Notes under the pieces: generated by a model
The model's input: the letters and a program-made list of their open reading frames with translations, nothing else
What the model was told of the DNA's origin: nothing
Databases searched by the model: none
Part shown: positions 45-37,795 of the stretch, piece by piece
Layout: every line of letters starts with the position of its first letter
Position numbering within the stretch: the first letter of the stretch is position 1
Origin: Cystobasidiomycetes sp. EMM_F5
Taxonomy: Eukaryota
Assembly (NCBI GenBank): GCA_051047955.1
Contig: JBPGPT010000001.1
Coordinates: 1,178,001-1,216,928, forward strand
Direction of reading: 5' to 3'
DNA: 38,928 nt
Made by a program: the position numbers and the translations under genes

Positions 45-1235
45 CGACTCGAACGACGCGAACCTGAATGTACGAGCACCAGCATACGAAGCTCTATCCA
101 CTCTCGCCACTCACTCTGCAAACGATACCTTACCAGCCGTCTCGAAGCTGTTGCTAACCATACTCGACCGGTCTGAACAGCTTCTGGGCATGCAAAACCA
201 GATTGTGTCGTCGGATGACCGCAACAAGTACAATGAGCTACAAATCAGCTTTTGTGGCGTGCTGAATGCCATTGTCCGACGTCTCGGCAAGCAAATTCGA
301 CCGTTAAGCGATAGAATCATGAACCTTCTCCTACTTCTCATTCAATCGTCTGCTCGTTCTTCTCCTATCCTCGAAGATGCTTTCCCGTGCGTTGGTACTA
401 TGGCAAGTACCCTCGAAGCCGATTTTGCGCCATATGTCCCTCCTTTCCTCCCCTTCCTTGCGAATGCTCTTGCAGCTCACGAAGAGTATACTCTGGTAGG
501 CACCGGCGTAGGTCTCGTTGGCGATATTTGCAGAGCTCTCGGCGAGGCTGCCCAGCCTTACGTCGAGGCCTTTTTGAGCGCGCTAGTTATGGATCTGCAG
601 TCCTCTGTCCTGCATCGATCGGTCAAACCACCCATCTTTGCGTGTTTCGGAGATATCGCTTTGGCCGTGGGTGCCAATGGCTTTGAGCCGTACGTCGAGG
701 CGACAATGTCCGTCCTCGCTCAGGCAGGCGGTATGCGAGCAGATCCTACAAACTACGATATCATCGAGTATGTCAATGTACTGCGAGAGGGCCTCATGGA
801 AGCGTATACTGGCATCGTCGGTGCCTTCAAGCAGACGCCAAAATGTAAGTAATCCACGTCGGATGCCGTGGTACATGGGCTAATCGCGCTCATCGCATCG
901 CATAGCCCCACTCCTCATTCCCTACATGCCAACCATATTCGCCTTTTTGCATATCGCTCTGACGGATCCTGAACGTTCAGAAACGATTGTCAAGTCTGGC
1001 GTCGGTCTCATTGGCGATTTGGCATCTGAGTACCAAAAAGGCGAAATTCGCGAACCGTTGATATCAGAATGGGTTCAGGAGAGCATAAAATCTGCAAGGA
1101 CCCGCAGCGGAAGTCAGGAGATCAAGGCGCTTGCCAAATGGGCAAAGGAGGTATGTCATGATGTGAAGAACACGGTATGTACAATCTGATGCTGTTCTCG
1201 TAATTTCACAGATGGTGCGGATAGCAACCAGATAG
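45..1235 (+). CDS. KAP95: Importin beta-1 (karyopherin beta), 3' part; gene starts before the window
   Basis: Exons 45-844, 906-1150, 1212-1235 splice in frame through GT-AG introns. HEAT-repeat C-terminus: RAPAYEAL, LHRSVKPPIFACFGDIALA, YVNVLREGLMEAYTGIV, GLIGDLA; ends WAKEMVRIATR*. Confidence 0.92.
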
Positions 1236-1659: not shown

Positions 1660-2275
1660 TATCCAGCAAGAATACGCCCCGCGAAAAGCTCAACAGCCGG
1701 TTCATTAAAGAGACCGCAGCCGAGTGTACGCCTCAGATGAGTTTGACGCCAGCATCGCGTACTACTCCCCTTCATTTTCACATCTTTCGCTTTCGCTTTC
1801 TCCCTGCAAGGTGCCTTGCAGGCTTCCCCTTCGTCCGGTCCGCTAGTCTCTACTACCGAGCCTCCGTGCAGCCAATACATTTGGCTACTATCACGCTAGC
1901 GGCGAAAAAGGCATGCATCGTGGGCGGACGAACAGGACACTGACTGAGGTCATCTGGACAAGGTGCCTCCTTCTTGTTCAGCCGACGCACCTCGGGTGTG
2001 GTCTCAAGATCTCGGTTTTAGGAGATAGTAGGTCGTTGCGCTACAGCGACTATATTCTTACTACTCTCCTCTTTACTGTCTCACCCCGCAAAATGCGGGT
2101 GAGTTTGTGATTGTGAGGCAGCCGTACGTGCTACAGTAGCTAGCGGGTCATGTAATGGATGAACTCAGGCATGCCAGGGCTGCGTTTGATTTAAGCCTCT
2201 CAGTTTGCCCTTTAATCCATCTCGGATCCCGCCTTTTTGCCGCCGACCCTTGCCTGACGCTTTTCGTGCCTGGAC
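1660..2275. ncRNA. Candidate structured non-coding RNA or foldback element, family unidentified
   Basis: Dense hairpins at 1803-1822, 1955-1980, 2022-2068 and 2080-2103, plus nested long-range inverted repeats 1682-1689/2259-2266 and 1899-1912/2231-2243. No credible CDS in the region. Confidence 0.4.
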
Positions 2276-2416
2276 CGCCAGGCCAGCGCCCAAGGTCCAA
2301 CCTCGCATCACACAAACACACGAAAATATCGGACGACAGCTTAGCAGGACGGTGGGATACCGGAGCAGTGATCCAAGATCCGACAACCAGCCCACTTCAA
2401 CCGTGCCATCTTCGCC

Positions 2417-30500: not shown

Positions 30501-30789
30501 GGTAGCTCAATATTCTGCTTCCGCACCTCGCGGGGCGTCCTGGACATCTCGGCTGCCGTCCCCTCGTCTGGATCACGGCAGCAGCAGTACTACGTGGAGC
30601 AATATCGCACGGTCAGCAGGTACGACTCCGCCGCAATGGAACGTCGTGGCAACAACGGCTGCTAGCAGCACTTCAGCGTTTCGCCACAACTCACATGTTG
30701 GACATGAACTTGACGATGACCTCCGCTTTGCAATAGAGTTGAGTCTTGCAGAGGAGCAGTCTAGGACTGCGAATGGCCAGAAGTTATAG
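27512..30789 (+). CDS. F-box/WD40 protein with C-terminal UIM motifs (Ufo1/Pof10-like architecture)
   Basis: F-box RLPLENLAQVFARLPPVALQTCALVCRAW; WD repeats (HLGPITAMAF...DSQAKLWNV; GDDHGRMFLWNW; DGIVRAYD); UIMs EDEAVALAIMLS and DDDLRFAIELSLAE. Start codon position is approximate. Confidence 0.85.
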
Positions 30790-32052
30790 CGGATCAGGTT
30801 GTGGGAGCTCGAGAAGACGATAGAAATCAGCGACCAAGTACAAGCTGCCGCAAACGACAATTCTTCTGGACCCGGTAGCCTCCTGTAAAGCTGTCGCAAT
30901 TGTCGTCGTTGTAGTACAACTCCACCCAAGCCCCGTGGCAGCCTGTGCAATCTTTTGCGGTTCGACAGCTTGCACCCACGGCATACCCTCGGGTGTAGTG
31001 AACGAGGTTGCCACCACCCGATGGGAGTTTGTATCCTTTACTAAGACTTCCAATAGAGCCTGCGGGTCACGCGGCGCAGACTGAGCGATAATGAATGTAG
31101 TGGGCGCGGACTGCAGGGTTTCGAGGTACTCGCGTAAAGCTTGCAATGATGCAGGATTATGAGCGCCATCGACCAGTATCTTTTGGCCTTTGTAATCGAC
31201 CCAATCCAGTCGACCGGGCCATCGAGTGCCAGATATGCCTTGTGCGATATGTGCGTTTGTGATATGGGCGAATTTATTATTGGCGGACCTACGCAAAACA
31301 TCGACTGTCAGGGCAGCGGTTGCTGCATTGTCTAGTTGATATGCGCCCGGCAACGGCAGCTGAACGGTCAGACTATGCCCTCCGATATCAATTTTGCCTG
31401 AGTGTGTAAGCCCAGCGTTCCTCGATGGACTCGACACTGTGTGCACTACGGCCTCGACAGAGTTGGCCCTATCTTTCACTACCTCATGAACAGCAGAGTA
31501 GGCTTGAGGGGCAACAACACAAGGCGTGCCCTTTTTGATGATACCCGCTTTGACTGCAGCAATTTCCTCAATCGTGTTGCCCAGGAAAGCTTGATGGTCC
31601 AAATCAATAGCCGTGACGACAGTGACCAGAGGTTTGGGACACACATTGGTCGCATCGGTTGCGCCGCCCATCCCGACTTCGACGACTGCGACATCTAGGA
31701 GTGTTCGGCTGTCTTTAAAAGCTTGGAAAGCGGTCGCCGTTAGCAGCTCGAAAGGGCTAGCTTGAGCGCTAGATTCGGAATCTGCTTTATGGACGAGTGC
31801 CTTTGCTGCGTCGTAGTCATCTTGCGGTATAGTCACACCTTGTATGTGTATCGAATCACGGACAGTGATGAGGTGAGGGCTGGTGAATCTGCCCACCCTC
31901 AATCCGGATACGCGAAGTATGGAGTCCAGATACGCACACACAGAACCTTTCCCATTAGTACCAGCGACATGGATAATGGGGACTGTAGTCTGTGGGTTGC
32001 CGAGCTTGGCTAGCAACCTCGTAATGCGCTCTAAGCCCAATTTGATGTTCAT
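30784..32052 (-). CDS. FOL3: Dihydrofolate synthase / folylpolyglutamate synthase (FolC family), intronless
   Basis: MNIKLGLERI, IHVAGTNGKGS, FTSPHL, EVGMGGATDATN, DHQAFLG, KAGIIK, WPGRL, VDGAHN, VCGSLYLV. Alternative in-frame ATG at 32085. Confidence 0.92.
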   Translation of the reverse strand: MNIKLGLERITRLLAKLGNPQTTVPIIHVAGTNGKGSVCAYLDSILRVSGLRVGRFTSPHLITVRDSIHIQGVTIPQDDYDAAKALVHKADSESSAQASPFELLTATAFQAFKDSRTLLDVAVVEVGMGGATDATNVCPKPLVTVVTAIDLDHQAFLGNTIEEIAAVKAGIIKKGTPCVVAPQAYSAVHEVVKDRANSVEAVVHTVSSPSRNAGLTHSGKIDIGGHSLTVQLPLPGAYQLDNAATAALTVDVLRRSANNKFAHITNAHIAQGISGTRWPGRLDWVDYKGQKILVDGAHNPASLQALREYLETLQSAPTTFIIAQSAPRDPQALLEVLVKDTNSHRVVATSFTTPEGMPWVQAVEPQKIAQAATGLGWSCTTTTTIATALQEATGSRRIVVCGSLYLVADFYRLLELPQPDPL

Positions 32053-32456
32053 AGTTCCCTCGCCCTCTGACACGGCGAGCTCCATCTCATCCGAAGAAGC
32101 AATATTGTTCAACTGCCATACATGTCATATTCAGTGGTGCTGGAGCCTTCATGTAGGCATGATTTGGAGATGACGACAGCCACGTCTGATACAACAGTCT
32201 ACTAAGAAAAACTAGCAAATCTTTGGCGGTGCTTCTGCAACAGCATCCTTTTCATCATACCCAGCATTGTGACTTTCGTGGGCTGGCGTAGGATGCTTAC
32301 CAGTGACCCTCGCGAATGCGGAGCATTCTGTTCTGTGCTATAATGAAGAAACTCGGCGTGAATCTACGGCGTAATGGCAGTTGCACGTCGCACATCACTG
32401 GGTCAGCCATAGTGACGAAGCCCTACGGCAGACGCAGTACCGTGGTCAAAACTGAC

Positions 32457-33147
32457 TCACTGCTGTCGTTTCTTAGCAGCCAACTTGCGCATATACTCGC
32501 AGTGTTTACATTTGCCAGTGGGCAGTGTAAAGTACTCGTTGTCTCTTCGACCGATATGGAGAACCTAACGTAACATTGTCAGTATGCCGCTGTGGGGTGA
32601 TGAACATAAACTCGCTATATGTTGACAGGGCCTGCGGCTGTTGTTGATTTCGGCGCTCTCGGATACCAAATGCTCTCGAATGATACACAGCGTCTGATGG
32701 CAGCGATGAGATATGTGCCAACCACCACCCGGAGCATCTGACGTAGCCGTTGAAGCTAGAATGTTTGCTCCTTGCTTTTCTTCATCACTGTATCTGATAA
32801 TTGAGTAGAAGAAGGCCTAGAGAATGTCTGGCAGATATTTTTGACGATCGTTAGTTTAGTTTCGGCGTTCACGGTGTTATGTTTTTTGAAATTTTTACCC
32901 AGCTGGCTGTCTCGGATAGATACCTGGATCTCTCCTATCGGCCCTGGGCGACAGCAAGGCGAGTACACCATCTTGCACGTTGTCAACGATGTTATAGCTT
33001 CTCAACTTCAGGCATCCGACGACACTGAGAGGTCTTCAGGAGTCAGTTGGATTAGATATGTCCTTTCTGTCGCGATGCAATGCCGTTATACTGACTGGAC
33101 GAGTCGAAGAGTTGCACGGCTACGTTTCTAGCTGCAGTCTGGCTCAT
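32457..33147 (-). CDS. His-Cys box (His-Me finger, I-PpoI-like) homing-endonuclease-like protein; possibly a pseudogene
   Basis: Exon 32616-32816 encodes SHRCHQTLCIIREHLVSESAEINNSRRPC, with the same spacing as I-PpoI [29 protein letters not shown]. Flanking introns 32817-32872 (56 nt) and 32565-32615 (51 nt, GC donor); last exon 32457-32564 contains CKHC. The 5' structure is uncertain because of two in-frame TGAs at 33002-33010. Confidence 0.65.
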
Positions 33148-33269
33148 TATACCATCTGCCTCTCTACTGCTCTTCTAGAGCTGACATCGCAGTAGACAGG
33201 CAGGATCTGCTAGGGATAGCGCCTGGCAAGATGGGAGAAAGAAGACACGTTTGTCAGGAACTAGCAGCC

Positions 33270-33692: not shown

Positions 33693-36600
33693 TTAAGCAG
33701 CGTCACGAGCCGGAACACGGACGGGCTCGACGCTCCAGATCTCGTCAGCGTATTCTGTGAGACGAACAAGCGAATCAGCATTCAAAGCAGTAAAGTTGAG
33801 CGAGATCGTGCGAACCGAGAACACATCGGTCAGACGAGAATTTGCCCATGCGGGCAGTAGTGAGGATGCAGCGCTTGGTCCAGCCACGCTTGTCAATAAA
33901 AGCCTCGTCAATCATCTGCTGAGCTTGCAGGACTGTGATGTCTGCAATCAGCGTGGCCCTGATGGTATGTCAGGCGAACGACGTACATGACTCGAAGCTG
34001 TGATTACAGGCATTGCTTGAGGTCAGCATTAAATGAGACCGTTGATGACGAAGTTACGCACTCATCAGTGATGCAGTAGTGGTCGCGACCCTCGATGACA
34101 CTGCTGATCAACGGCTGGAAAGGCGATGGATCGCCAAACACGCCTTGGCGGATAGCATCAATGGCTTCTTGCAGAGGTTGCTAAATTATGACATCAGTAA
34201 GCTGCTCGCTCGGTACCGTGCTATACATACAGGAATGACAAGTTCGCCGTAGTGGTGTTCGTGGCGGAGACCTGCGATGTTGTCGGCGGTGTAACCGAAG
34301 AAGAAACACTGTACACGATGTCAGCTTGGAAGCCTAGACAATCGATGACAGAAGAATCACTGACCTGGTCATCTCCAACCTCCTCCGCAATCTCGATGGT
34401 AGCACCATCGACTGTACCGAGCAGAAGACCACCGTTGAGGGCGAACTGGCACAAGCAGACACTATCAGTGAATGCCGACTGCACAGAGCCGCTGCGAGCA
34501 TACCTTCATGTTACTGGTACCACTGGCCTGCAAATTCGAAGATGTGTGAGATACACATCGCATTATATGTTCCCGATGAGGTGAGCTTACCTCGGTACCT
34601 GCCGTGGAGATGTGCAGAGAAATGTCGGATGCTGGAATGAGCAGCTCGGCAAGTGAGACGCTGTAGTCTGGCAGGAAGACGACCTGGTAGATATCAGTCA
34701 TGTCCTTGTCGGCATTGACGATGTTCATGACTGCCAGTAGTCAGGTTAGCAGACCGCGGCGCACTCTAAACAGTGAAACGCACTGGCATTGACAAGTCGG
34801 ATGATGAGCTTAGCAATGTAATAGCCTGGAGCAGCTTTTCCTGCGAAAATCTCTACACGAGGAACGACCTTCTTTCGCTCAGCGGGCGACATCTTCTTGA
34901 GAGTCAGGTAGCGGTGAATGCATCCAAACGCATTCATGAGTTGACGCTTGTACTCGTGGATACGCTTGACTTGGATGGAGAAGAGCGAGTTGGGGTTGAT
35001 TGGAATATTGAGAGTTCGCTCAATGTACTCTGCCAATCGGACCTTGTTTTGGTACTTGATGTCGTAAAATCGCTTGACGAAGGCAGCGTCATCAACTTTA
35101 GCCTCAATCTTGCGGAGCAGTGTCGCATTAGTAAGCCAGGCATCACCACCGAGGGTCTCGGTGATCAGCTCTGCTAGACCAGGGTTGCACTGGAGAAGCC
35201 AGCGACGGAAGGTGACACCGTTGGTGACATTCTTGAATTTGTCGGGTCCGCTATTGACGATGGAGAGGTGTCGTGTCAGTCACATCTCAGATCAGCTTAT
35301 CAAATGTAGCCTCACTAGAATTCTACAAAGTCCTTGAGCATGACGCGAACGAGCTGAGAGTGAAGCTCTGCTACACCGTTGACAGCATGCGATCCTACAA
35401 TAGCAAGCCAGGCCATTCGGACTTGCTGTGGTGACCCCTCTGTGAATGTGAAAAGCAAGCCTCAGAATCGTTCTCGCATATGGTAGGACCGACACTACAA
35501 CGCACCCTGAATGAGTGACATGCGACCGAGCCTGTCCATGTCCTTTGGATACTTCTTCTCGACCTGCTTGAGGAACATGAGATTGATGTCGAAGATGATC
35601 TGCATGTGACGCGGCAGGAGGTTCGAGATGAGTGGGACGGGCCAGCACTCGAGCGCCTCTGGCAGGACAGTGTGGTTTGTGTAGGCAAAGGTCTTTTGCA
35701 CAATTGCCCAAGCATCGGCAAACTCGATGTTCTCCTCGTCCACGAGGATACGTTGCAGCTCGACAATAGCCAGGGTAGGATGAGTGTCGTTGAGCTGAAT
35801 AGCAACATAGTGGGCTGTGATGATGGACCATGATCAGAGAAACGCCAAGGTGCATCAAAAGTTGATATTTACGGAACTCGGACCAGGGCACTCCGATCTT
35901 CTTCCATCGTCTGATGATATCCTGCAGGGAAGCTGCAGTCCAGAAGTACTGCTGCTTGAGGCGGAGTTCCTTGCCTGCCCAGAAGCTACCCAAGCGATTG
36001 TTATTTTCGCGTTGAATGCATCCGCTCAAATACTCTCACTCACTTGTCATTGGGATACAAGACTCGAGTGATGGTCTCTGCATTTTCAGCTTCGCGCACA
36101 GATCCATCATAATCTCCGGCGTTGAAAGACTGGAGGTTGAAGCCTCTCTTTGGCTGAGCCCTCCAGAGACGGATGTTGTTGGTGTTGACCGTGTTGTAGC
36201 CAGGGATGGGGACATCGTACGGCACTGCGAGTACCTCTACGCCGCTGGTCCAGCGATTGTTGCCGGCTGCGTCACGATTTGCGCTACCGTACAGCTTGAC
36301 GGAGACGGTGTTGTCGAGACGAGCTGATACAAAGCTAACGTCAGTCTGGAAGATAGCCGGGCAGACTTCCTCAACTCACGAACTTCCCAAGGGTTGGCTT
36401 CAGATAGCCATGGGTCTGACAATTGTATACTTCAGCATCGATTAACACAGAGCATCTCATTGCATCAAAGTTACCTGGAATCTCAGTCTGTTGGCCTTGC
36501 TGGTCGATTGCCTGCATGAAGACTGCAATACGACAAACATTATTAGTTCACTCCTGTGGAAACACCGAGGCGATTCATCACTTACTGCCGTACTGGTATC

Positions 36601-37795
36601 GTAAGCCATAACCCCAAGCGGGGATGTCCATCGTCGATAGCGAGTCCATGTAGCATGCAGCAAGACGGCCGAGACCACCATTACCTAGGCCTGCATCACG
36701 TTCGGAATCGAGGAGATCCTCCATGTTGAAGCCGAGCTGATTTACCGACTGCTCAAACTCCTTCTTGAGACCAAGGTTGAGAATGGCATTGTCTAGCGAT
36801 CGTCCGAGCAAAAACTCGAGCGAAAGATAGTATACGCGCTTTGGTGTCTTTTGAGTGTGATAGACTGTTCGTAGACTGGTTCAGAATGTGTGAAAGCAAG
36901 CGAGGGGAAGCCATGACTTACTTTGTGTGTCATTCCAGTCTGTTTGTGGCACAAACTGTCAGCTGACCATTCTAGGGCTATGGTAAATAACCATGACCAG
37001 ACTAACCCTGAATGAGACGATCGCGAGTGGCCAGCGCAACAGCCTGGTAGGCACCGACTGTATCGAGATTGTAGGGTGCTCTTGCCAGGGACGAGTGAAC
37101 GTGCTAAGAGAGACGCAAGGAGTCAGTATTACATTCGTACAGAAGAGTACCAACACGCAAGCTCACTTGGACAATACTGATCAAAGATTGGCACAGTGTT
37201 AGTTTTGAGACTTCCGTTTCGCACTGTTTTGTATATTCCTCGTTGCCACCTCTCCTCACCTGGCTTCAATGTCATCTACACCATTCTTGAGCTGAGTAGC
37301 CGCTACTGCCTTCTTCCATGCTCCGGAATCGGAACCCTCTGGGAAGATTGCCTTGAGTGATTCGCCCGGAGCGACAATCATCCCTGAAAGCAATGGATGA
37401 GATTGTCTAGAGCACAAGCGATATGGCTCGCACCCACCGGTAGCACTACGCTTGTGCATCTTTGGACGGTGCGTCGCAGTCGAGTGCGAGGCCTGCGGGA
37501 GTATAGATATCGGACATGTCAGGAACGAGGCACGACTGGGAGCGACGATGGACAGACGGTGAGCGGGTTGGCGGAGTTCATGGGGTTTGCGCCGTCGAGA
37601 GTGATTCCTGGGGACGGCATGGGCTGAGGCTTGTCCTTCTTTGCGGCTGCAAAGCGCAATCATCAGCACAACTTGACTTGGACGCGTCGGACACTGTTGC
37701 CAGGACTCACCCGATGGGGCAGCTGCTGGGGACGCTGCCGGTGCTACGCTGGCTGGCAGCACCTTGCTCACTACGTCCTTGATGACCGATGCCAT
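33693..37795 (-). CDS. GPH1: Glycogen phosphorylase
   Basis: Many exons: [98 protein letters not shown] (PLP lysine), FSSDR...EYADEIW; ends RDAA*. Confidence 0.96.

Follow-up and report, generated by a model that had tools for sequence, protein, structure and literature searches.

His-Cys box endonucleases have been described as products of genes in group I introns of nuclear ribosomal DNA (rDNA), and from 2022 onwards a single lineage of animal transposons has been reported to encode them as well (PMC9587614). What, then, is a His-Cys box doing in the spacer between a glycogen phosphorylase gene (GPH1) and a folylpolyglutamate synthase-type gene of a fungal chromosome, and can it still be read into a protein? 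The spacer belongs to a stretch of 38,928 nucleotides (nt) from Cystobasidiomycetes sp. EMM_F5, which was analysed on both strands and is designated the window; the locus itself occupies the minus strand at about 33147-32457, where a sequence-only reading had proposed a nuclease gene of this type, split by spliceosomal introns and escaped from rDNA. To judge from its sequence, the locus is a real free-standing member of the known His-Cys box nuclease family in nuclear spacer DNA.

The identification starts from a minus-strand frame, open from stop to stop at 32565-32816, whose 83 amino acids (aa) carry the same letters that the sequence-only reading had quoted. The Pfam profile PF05551 (zf-His_Me_endon) matches this frame with an E-value of 4.3e-11 and 43.6 bits at a curated cut-off of 27, and the proposed exon 32616-32816 by itself reaches 41.3 bits, so that the profile hit on which the proposal had been staked is present; no other Pfam family matches the 83-aa frame up to E 10. 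A profile built from 17 relatives gives the frame 70.4 bits and the next best open reading frame (ORF) of the window 6.1 bits, and among the 1228 ORFs of at least 20 aa scored in this way the nuclease core is the only copy. The central feature is:

32616..32816, minus strand: exon 3, the His-Cys box or beta-beta-alpha-metal core, with the conserved part at about 32619-32738 (ORF residues 27-66)

In a phmmer search of PDB sequences, the sole match of the frame is I-PpoI (1evw_A), weak when taken alone (E 0.49). ORF residues 34-65 lie opposite residues 95-126 of the I-PpoI chain without a gap, as had been claimed, and the claimed catalytic and zinc-binding residues are kept: S36, H37, C39, C44, H49, E53, N58, R61 and C64 pair with I-PpoI residues 97, 98, 100, 105, 110, 114, 119, 122 and 125, respectively. 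The same nine residues are invariant columns, N58 being nearly invariant, in alignments with 12, 17 and 41 relatives. According to PMC9587614, H98, H110 and N119 form the catalytic motif of I-PpoI, S97 and E114 are conserved as well, and eight histidine and cysteine residues make up two zinc sites. The catalytic set together with S97 and E114 is matched completely in the core by H37, H49, N58, S36 and E53. Four of the eight zinc ligands of the family (the equivalents of C100, C105, H110 and C125) are located inside exon 3, and the other four hinge on the predicted flanking exons. By this alignment, the catalytic and zinc-binding residues of the central exon are intact and the window locus encodes a true I-PpoI-type His-Cys box nuclease core.

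Structure prediction was done on single-exon peptides. Two AlphaFold2 models of the 83-aa frame, made with 18 and 42 aligned sequences, have a mean predicted local distance difference test (pLDDT) score of 64.9 and 67.1, with pLDDT values of 80-94 in a core composed of a strand (33-37), a second strand (50-54) and a helix (55-60), and with disordered ends. When these models were compared with the PDB by Foldseek, I-PpoI chains filled the first 4 of 45 rows in one run and 3 of 5 rows in the other, at E-values of merely 0.7-6, which are not significant. The predicted fold is compatible with I-PpoI, to which it points uniquely and without independent significance, and family membership rests on sequence.

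How such a core could be expressed is the second part of the question. Its frame has no ATG and is preceded directly by a stop, and it would therefore be expressible only through splicing. The gene model joins four predicted exons by three predicted spliceosomal introns on the minus strand from 33147 to 32457, with the core as the third exon. The parts flanking the core are, in the direction of transcription:

33276-33269, minus strand: TATA-like box TATAAAAG, read from the sequence; the proposed ATG follows 122 nt downstream
33096..33147, minus strand: proposed exon 1, with the ATG at 33147, 17 codons plus 1 base, without homology support
32998..33095, minus strand: predicted intron A, 98 nt, GTCAGT...AACTGAC...AAG; by eye, the GTCAGT donor is also found in one GPH1 intron
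32873..32997, minus strand: proposed exon 2, with a cysteine (TTCKMV) and a histidine (KKHNT) at spacings compatible with the N-terminal motifs of the family
32817..32872, minus strand: predicted intron B, 56 nt, GTGAAC...ACTAAC...TAG
32565..32615, minus strand: predicted intron C, 51 nt (17 codons), GCGAGT...TACTGAC...TAG, of the GC-AG type
32457..32564, minus strand: proposed exon 4, ending in TGA (32457-32459) after 35 codons; it encodes C-K-H-C and a basic tail

The predicted 56-nt and 51-nt introns, the TATA-like box and the C-K-H-C motif with its basic tail had all been named beforehand and were found where listed. Between the TATA-like box and the proposed nuclease ATG, a 7-codon upstream ORF (ATG...TAG) is located at 33164-33187 on the minus strand.

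All predicted exons are open and sum up to 486 nt or 161 codons, close to the 163 residues of I-PpoI and the 131-172 aa of the relatives. At intron B the frame has to change, since that of the core is closed by a stop at 32817-32819 and lacks an ATG ahead of the core; an alternative donor for this intron, GTATCT at 32923, gives a 107-nt intron that is also in frame. Exon 1 is the least certain piece of the model and the sole simple source of a start codon that was found for exon 2. Intron C shares its frame with exons 3 and 4, and the only in-frame stop consists of its final three bases (TAG at 32565-32567). If it were retained, the product would end after C-x6-C-x3-H; if it were spliced, the loop of the second zinc site would become much longer, C-x21-C-x-H. 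As intron C is in frame and its only stop is terminal, the layout can be read either as a retained-intron isoform or as a nonsense mutation in a once-continuous frame, and in an active gene this 51-nt intron could yield two products by retention or removal. Read by eye, the five introns of GPH1 next door are similar to the predicted ones in size (51-98 nt here) and in branch motif (CTAAC or CTGAC).

In the proposed scheme, the core would be expressed as the third exon of a four-exon gene of about 161 codons on the minus strand, whose small spliced messenger RNA (mRNA) would be translated into a protein of about 161 aa with a beta-beta-alpha-metal fold stabilised by two zinc ions. His37, part of a Ser-His pair, would serve as the general base that activates water and Asn58 would hold the divalent catalytic metal, as in I-PpoI. 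The product would cut double-stranded DNA at a specific site, and its role might be that of a selfish element, directed at an empty allele or another site, or that of a nuclease recruited by the host.

Whether the four predicted exons form an intact gene is, in our assessment, an even bet. In favour of the model, when the real exon 3 was embedded in Markov-random flanks, the frame could be lengthened upstream through an intron by 40 codons or more in 97 of 2000 trials and downstream by 30 codons or more in 319 of 2000, and the codon log-odds of the model frame amount to 0.66 bits, as against -44 and -47 in the off-frames. Other observations weigh against it. Equally long pieces of known coding sequence from the window reach 13-44 bits, as against these 0.66 bits, and the codon usage of the model is not host-like. 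By eye, a G is present at position +5 in all five clear GPH1 introns and missing from the intron B donor GTGAAC; intron C requires a rare GC donor, and it is one of ten signal-compatible introns downstream of the core, three of the nine others reaching the same final frame. The zinc motif of exon 4 has a cysteine directly after the histidine and none at the final cysteine position of the family, a few residues after C-x-H.

The homology tests point in the same direction. The spliced protein was scored solely with profiles built in this analysis, where the flanking exons shift the family-profile scores by only about -2.5 to +4 bits. The gain of 4 bits that exon 4 brings against a profile of the long C-terminus is equalled by 18 of 300 shuffles and is not significant, nor is the score of exon 2 against the family profile, which 54 of 300 shuffles reach. 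With a 41-sequence profile, the observed score is reached by 459 of 500 shuffles for exon 4 and by 411 of 500 for exon 2, and BLASTP of either exon against P0012, the nearest relative, gave no match. Finally, no orthologue or relative nearer than 47-56% identity over 34-48 residues was found among the 1.84 billion representative proteins of the library searched. Profile scoring does not separate the two forms of the tail: intron C spliced and retained give near-equal values of 71.5 and 72.4 bits. Matches of exon 4 to E-x-M-R-K and to LPTG were considered as homology support and set aside, as shuffle tests do not back them.

Many of these observations are what a relic would leave, and to this explanation we assign somewhat less than an even chance. 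A His-Cys box gene that once belonged to an rDNA group I intron or to a transposon would have landed in the spacer and decayed there; the introns would be chance signals or frame-breaking mutations, including the TAG at 32565-32567, and nothing functional would be made. Only the core of about 40 residues is significantly family-like, exons 2 and 4 failing to beat their shuffles, and the codon usage is near-neutral; exons 3 and 4 lie in one frame with a single TAG between them, as a nonsense mutation would leave it, the frame changes directly upstream of the core, and introns B and C begin with weak or rare donor sites. In addition, protein collections that contain a sequence 387/389 identical to the neighbouring gene product have no entry for the locus. 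Decay accounts less well for a core in which all ten conserved family positions are intact, for three needed frame corrections, at every one of which donor, branch and acceptor signals like those of the local introns are present, for the low joint chance of the upstream and downstream extensions in random flanks, and for a total model length that fits the family.

The opposite possibility, an active free-standing nuclear endonuclease of the homing type, which would spread by cutting the empty phosphorylase-folylpolyglutamate synthase spacer or another site, or which the host would have recruited, is unlikely in our view. Precedents for both roles are known from other nucleases: homing without an intron occurs in free-standing endonucleases of phages, and the HO endonuclease is a recruited counterpart among the LAGLIDADG enzymes.

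Where the gene could have come from depends on its surroundings and its relatives. The domain scan of the ORFs characterises the window as gene-dense, ordinary nuclear chromosomal DNA, and the nuclease core is placed in a spacer of about 1.4 kb with the phosphorylase gene on one side and the folate gene on the other, in agreement with the earlier placement between FOL3 and GPH1. The phosphorylase gene, the nuclease model and the folate gene are all three oriented on the minus strand:

33693..36880, minus strand: upstream neighbour, glycogen phosphorylase gene (GPH1) with several exons, PF00343 on five ORF pieces, stop codon at 33693-33695
30784..32267, minus strand: downstream neighbour, folylpolyglutamate synthase-type gene with Mur_ligase_M and Mur_ligase_C domains
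Elsewhere in the window: genes for importin beta, a PP-type phosphatase, an aminotransferase, TFIIE beta, a P450, Mis13 and a ThiS-family protein
Also listed for the window: genes for EMC1, an F-box/WD40 protein and an ALO-type oxidase, with the Mur-ligase-type folate gene and glycogen phosphorylase

The ORF product of the folate gene is an exact entry in a protein collection and is identical in 387 of 389 positions to an NCBI protein named folylpolyglutamate synthase, which comes from an unclassified Cystobasidiomycetes species (Basidiomycota, Pucciniomycotina). The ATG of the folate gene, placed by eye from the first residues of this near-identical protein, is located at about 32267, some 190 nt past the nuclease stop codon. 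The N-terminus of the synthase, judged by eye from its first five residues, fits only with a first exon of 7 nt at 32261-32267 and a micro-exon of 8 nt at 32178-32185, followed by the main exon from 32112.

No rRNA gene and no group I intron were detected by Rfam at gathering score on either strand of the 38,928-base window, which agrees with the earlier statement on this point; the same search did detect group I introns or rRNA at the loci of six of 33 relatives. The window locus thus does not reside within a nuclear rDNA group I intron, as a classical homing endonuclease gene does. Transposase domains, including PF20700, are likewise missing from the 97 window ORFs that are 100 aa or longer, and the nuclease locus is flanked by no terminal inverted or long direct repeats, only repeats of 12-19 nt, a size expected by chance, being found; the convergent DDD/E Mutator-like transposase inside terminal repeats that characterises the KolobokP type is absent. 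Across positions 32600-33199 of the window, the G+C content falls to 0.47-0.48, compared with 0.50-0.57 in the flanking genes, and this dip would fit either spacer DNA or a foreign origin.

The 33 relatives were obtained by a pattern scan of metagenome contigs, which was built on a 6-row alignment and matched 106 stretches, 33 of them being confirmed. An rDNA or group I intron setting was assigned by Rfam to six (L001, L007, L012, L021, L028 and L030). The relatives' loci contain 98 ORFs with 110 aa or more, 33 of which were domain-scanned, and the Mutator-like transposase PF20700 was recognised in 18 ORFs at 17 of the 33 loci, convergent to the nuclease. These transposase ORFs are 335-765 aa long and belong to L002, L005, L006, L008, L010, L011, L014, L015, L016, L018, L019, L020, L022, L024, L025, L027 and L032; the 17 loci have the look of KolobokP-type elements from environmental eukaryotes. 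Ten loci are without context; of these, four are either identical with a transposase-linked locus or share a starred clade with one. Two types of C-terminal tail go along with these settings: a short one, C-x5-C-x2-H-x5/6-C, in the transposase-linked relatives, and a long hairpin ahead of C-x-H-x3-C in five of the six rDNA-linked relatives, L012 being incomplete. With intron C spliced, the tail of the window protein is of the long type.

Closest of all relatives found is L001 (protein P0012), with 54% identity over 39 residues and E 4e-12 in BLASTP and 65% identity over 31 residues in tblastn, and it is also nearest to the window sequence by tree path. On the strand opposite to its nuclease gene, Rfam recognises a complete group I intron at 87.6 bits. 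In the L001 sequence (31-175 on the plus strand, 694-1041 on the minus strand), an ATG followed by GTAAGT...CAG precedes the main frame by eye, and this antisense gene likely contains a spliceosomal intron near its 5' end. At L012, a PF05551 ORF of 50.2 bits (1666-2040, plus strand) lies antisense between the 3' end of the small-subunit rRNA (2155-2312, minus strand) and the 5.8S rRNA (603-755, minus strand); Rfam called no group I intron at this ORF, and its setting would be the rDNA spacer, which should be internal transcribed spacer 1, and not an intron.

In the tree, which was computed from 57 rows and 42 columns after P0004 and P0019 as well as P0012, which duplicates the L001 protein, had been left out, 37 of the 52 inner branches remain open, and the window sequence falls within none of the starred clades. 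As the tree leaves so much open and offers no supported clade with the window, an origin of the window nuclease from an rDNA intron is plausible only, as the sequences stand. The escape from rDNA that had been proposed is compatible with a group I intron gene as the nearest neighbour by tree path, and is not tied to any supported clade.

The same data bear on a further explanation, that the locus is cargo of a mobile element that went unrecognised, for example of a degraded KolobokP-like transposon whose ends and transposase were lost or escaped detection. It has on its side that the arrangement of 17 of the 33 metagenomic relatives, convergent to a PF20700 transposase, is the one published for KolobokP (PMC9587614), and that the read-through tail with intron C retained, C-x6-C-x3-H, resembles the short transposon-linked C-terminus. 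This tail is not significant, since 77 of 500 shuffles do as well, the core belongs to no supported transposon-type clade, there is merely about 1.4 kb between the two housekeeping genes, and neither a transposase nor repeats were found as described above; we regard such an element as improbable. A chance likeness of non-coding spacer to a motif rich in cysteine and histidine can practically be dismissed: the match indeed covers only some 40 residues, and none of the structural searches is significant taken alone, but PF05551 is exceeded by 16 bits over its curated cut-off, the independent 17-sequence profile singles out this frame among 1228 ORFs, and 18 library proteins match at E-values of up to 0.001, five of which carry PF05551 and two of which are named as homing endonuclease zinc-binding loop proteins.

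The library in which these 18 hits were found contains one representative for each 50% cluster of about 15 billion proteins, 1.84 billion in total. The best hit has an E-value of 5.7e-6 and 47% identity over 47 residues. Ten of the 18 were looked up and two proved to be named, both as proteins with the zinc-binding loop region of homing endonucleases; a PF05551 hit, precomputed or scanned, is on record for five sequences, P0008, P0011, P0012 and P0017 plus the ORF of P0012 in L001. The ESM Atlas gave no usable hit, and in a word-indexed protein search none of 45 candidates for the longer form was retained and no candidate for a near form came up, while a 13-row alignment yielded 4 of 362, all already known. 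Residues 537-568 of P0004, a protein of 1978 aa left out of all alignments, match ORF residues 16-47 with E 3.2e-5, and P0004 could be a fused form of the nuclease domain. Since the protein of the window locus is not in the library, though the near-identical product of the neighbouring gene is, the locus is probably unannotated in the collections searched.

As to novelty, the protein family, small spliceosomal introns in its genes (PMC9548176) and a life outside rDNA introns are already known. The sequence-only reading had set this locus apart from the classical residence in rDNA introns; a life outside them is not new for the family in view of the KolobokP nucleases (PMC9587614), the 17 transposase-linked loci among the 33 relatives and annotated proteins of Lipomyces. 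In the open-access literature, supplements aside, no description of free-standing chromosomal His-Cys box genes in fungi was found, the only non-intron setting being that of PMC9587614; the alignment supplements of that paper may list fungal chromosomal members. What is new is modest: a member that is single-copy in the window and unannotated, located in the spacer between two housekeeping genes in a basidiomycete yeast and with up to three predicted introns. It would represent a third setting for the family, so far visible only as unnamed domain hits, such as those in Lipomyces. If expressed, the locus would provide a small, naturally nuclear, sequence-specific nuclease and a test case for homing nucleases that leave introns; if recruited by the host, and if this is true, it would be the first domesticated His-Cys box nuclease, akin to HO among the LAGLIDADG enzymes; if a relic, it would date an earlier move of the gene out of rDNA or out of a transposon into a chromosome arm. 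Either way, short multi-exon genes of this type are missed by gene callers.

Among the known systems, I-PpoI from an rDNA group I intron of Physarum polycephalum (PDB 1a73, 1a74 and 1evw) is the structural reference, a dimer that makes staggered double-strand cuts (PMC9587614). Its core aligns with that of the window locus, which lies outside rDNA and group I introns, and the similarity is confined to the core, none being detectable outside it. The predicted window protein differs in the second zinc site, where the loop is longer if intron C is spliced and the last ligand is off the family position. The KolobokP transposons of animals encode I-PpoI-like nucleases convergent to a DDD/E transposase (PMC9587614); these nucleases and the 17 transposase-linked loci share the set S97, H98, H110, E114 and N119 with the window core and have the short C-terminal tail and a transposase, whereas the window has no transposase and its core falls in no supported transposon-linked clade. 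L001 has a group I intron opposite its gene, which the window lacks, and the flanking exons show no pairwise similarity to P0012.

The closest counterparts in gene structure are the His-Cys box genes in rDNA introns of myxomycetes, I-DirI and I-DsqI (the latter in PMC9548176), which contain small spliceosomal introns of the 47-nt class and give rise to polyadenylated mRNA, and through these precedents the combination of a His-Cys box gene with a spliceosomal intron is already described. I-DirI and I-DsqI have one small intron each and reside inside rDNA group I introns, whereas three introns are predicted for the window gene in a chromosomal spacer; splicing has been demonstrated for I-DsqI, whereas the window introns are predicted from sequence. 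Within the fungi, the I-PpoI group (His-Me finger group 12) was listed in 2017 with 62 eukaryotic (fungal) sequences (PMC5714182). The Lipomyces proteins P0013, P0018, P0020 and P0021 are annotated as 'zinc-binding loop region of homing endonuclease-domain-containing' and are encoded on contigs of nuclear size (up to 1.98 Mb). They come from an ascomycete yeast, comprise one to three tandem domains in 111-507 aa and resemble the window sequence weakly (E 3.7e-4 and 9.2e-4, 37-40% identity), and the window locus is in an unannotated state in a basidiomycete. Their C-terminus is of the long-hairpin type, with E-x-M-R-K after C-x-H, a motif that also occurs in exon 4 of the window model.

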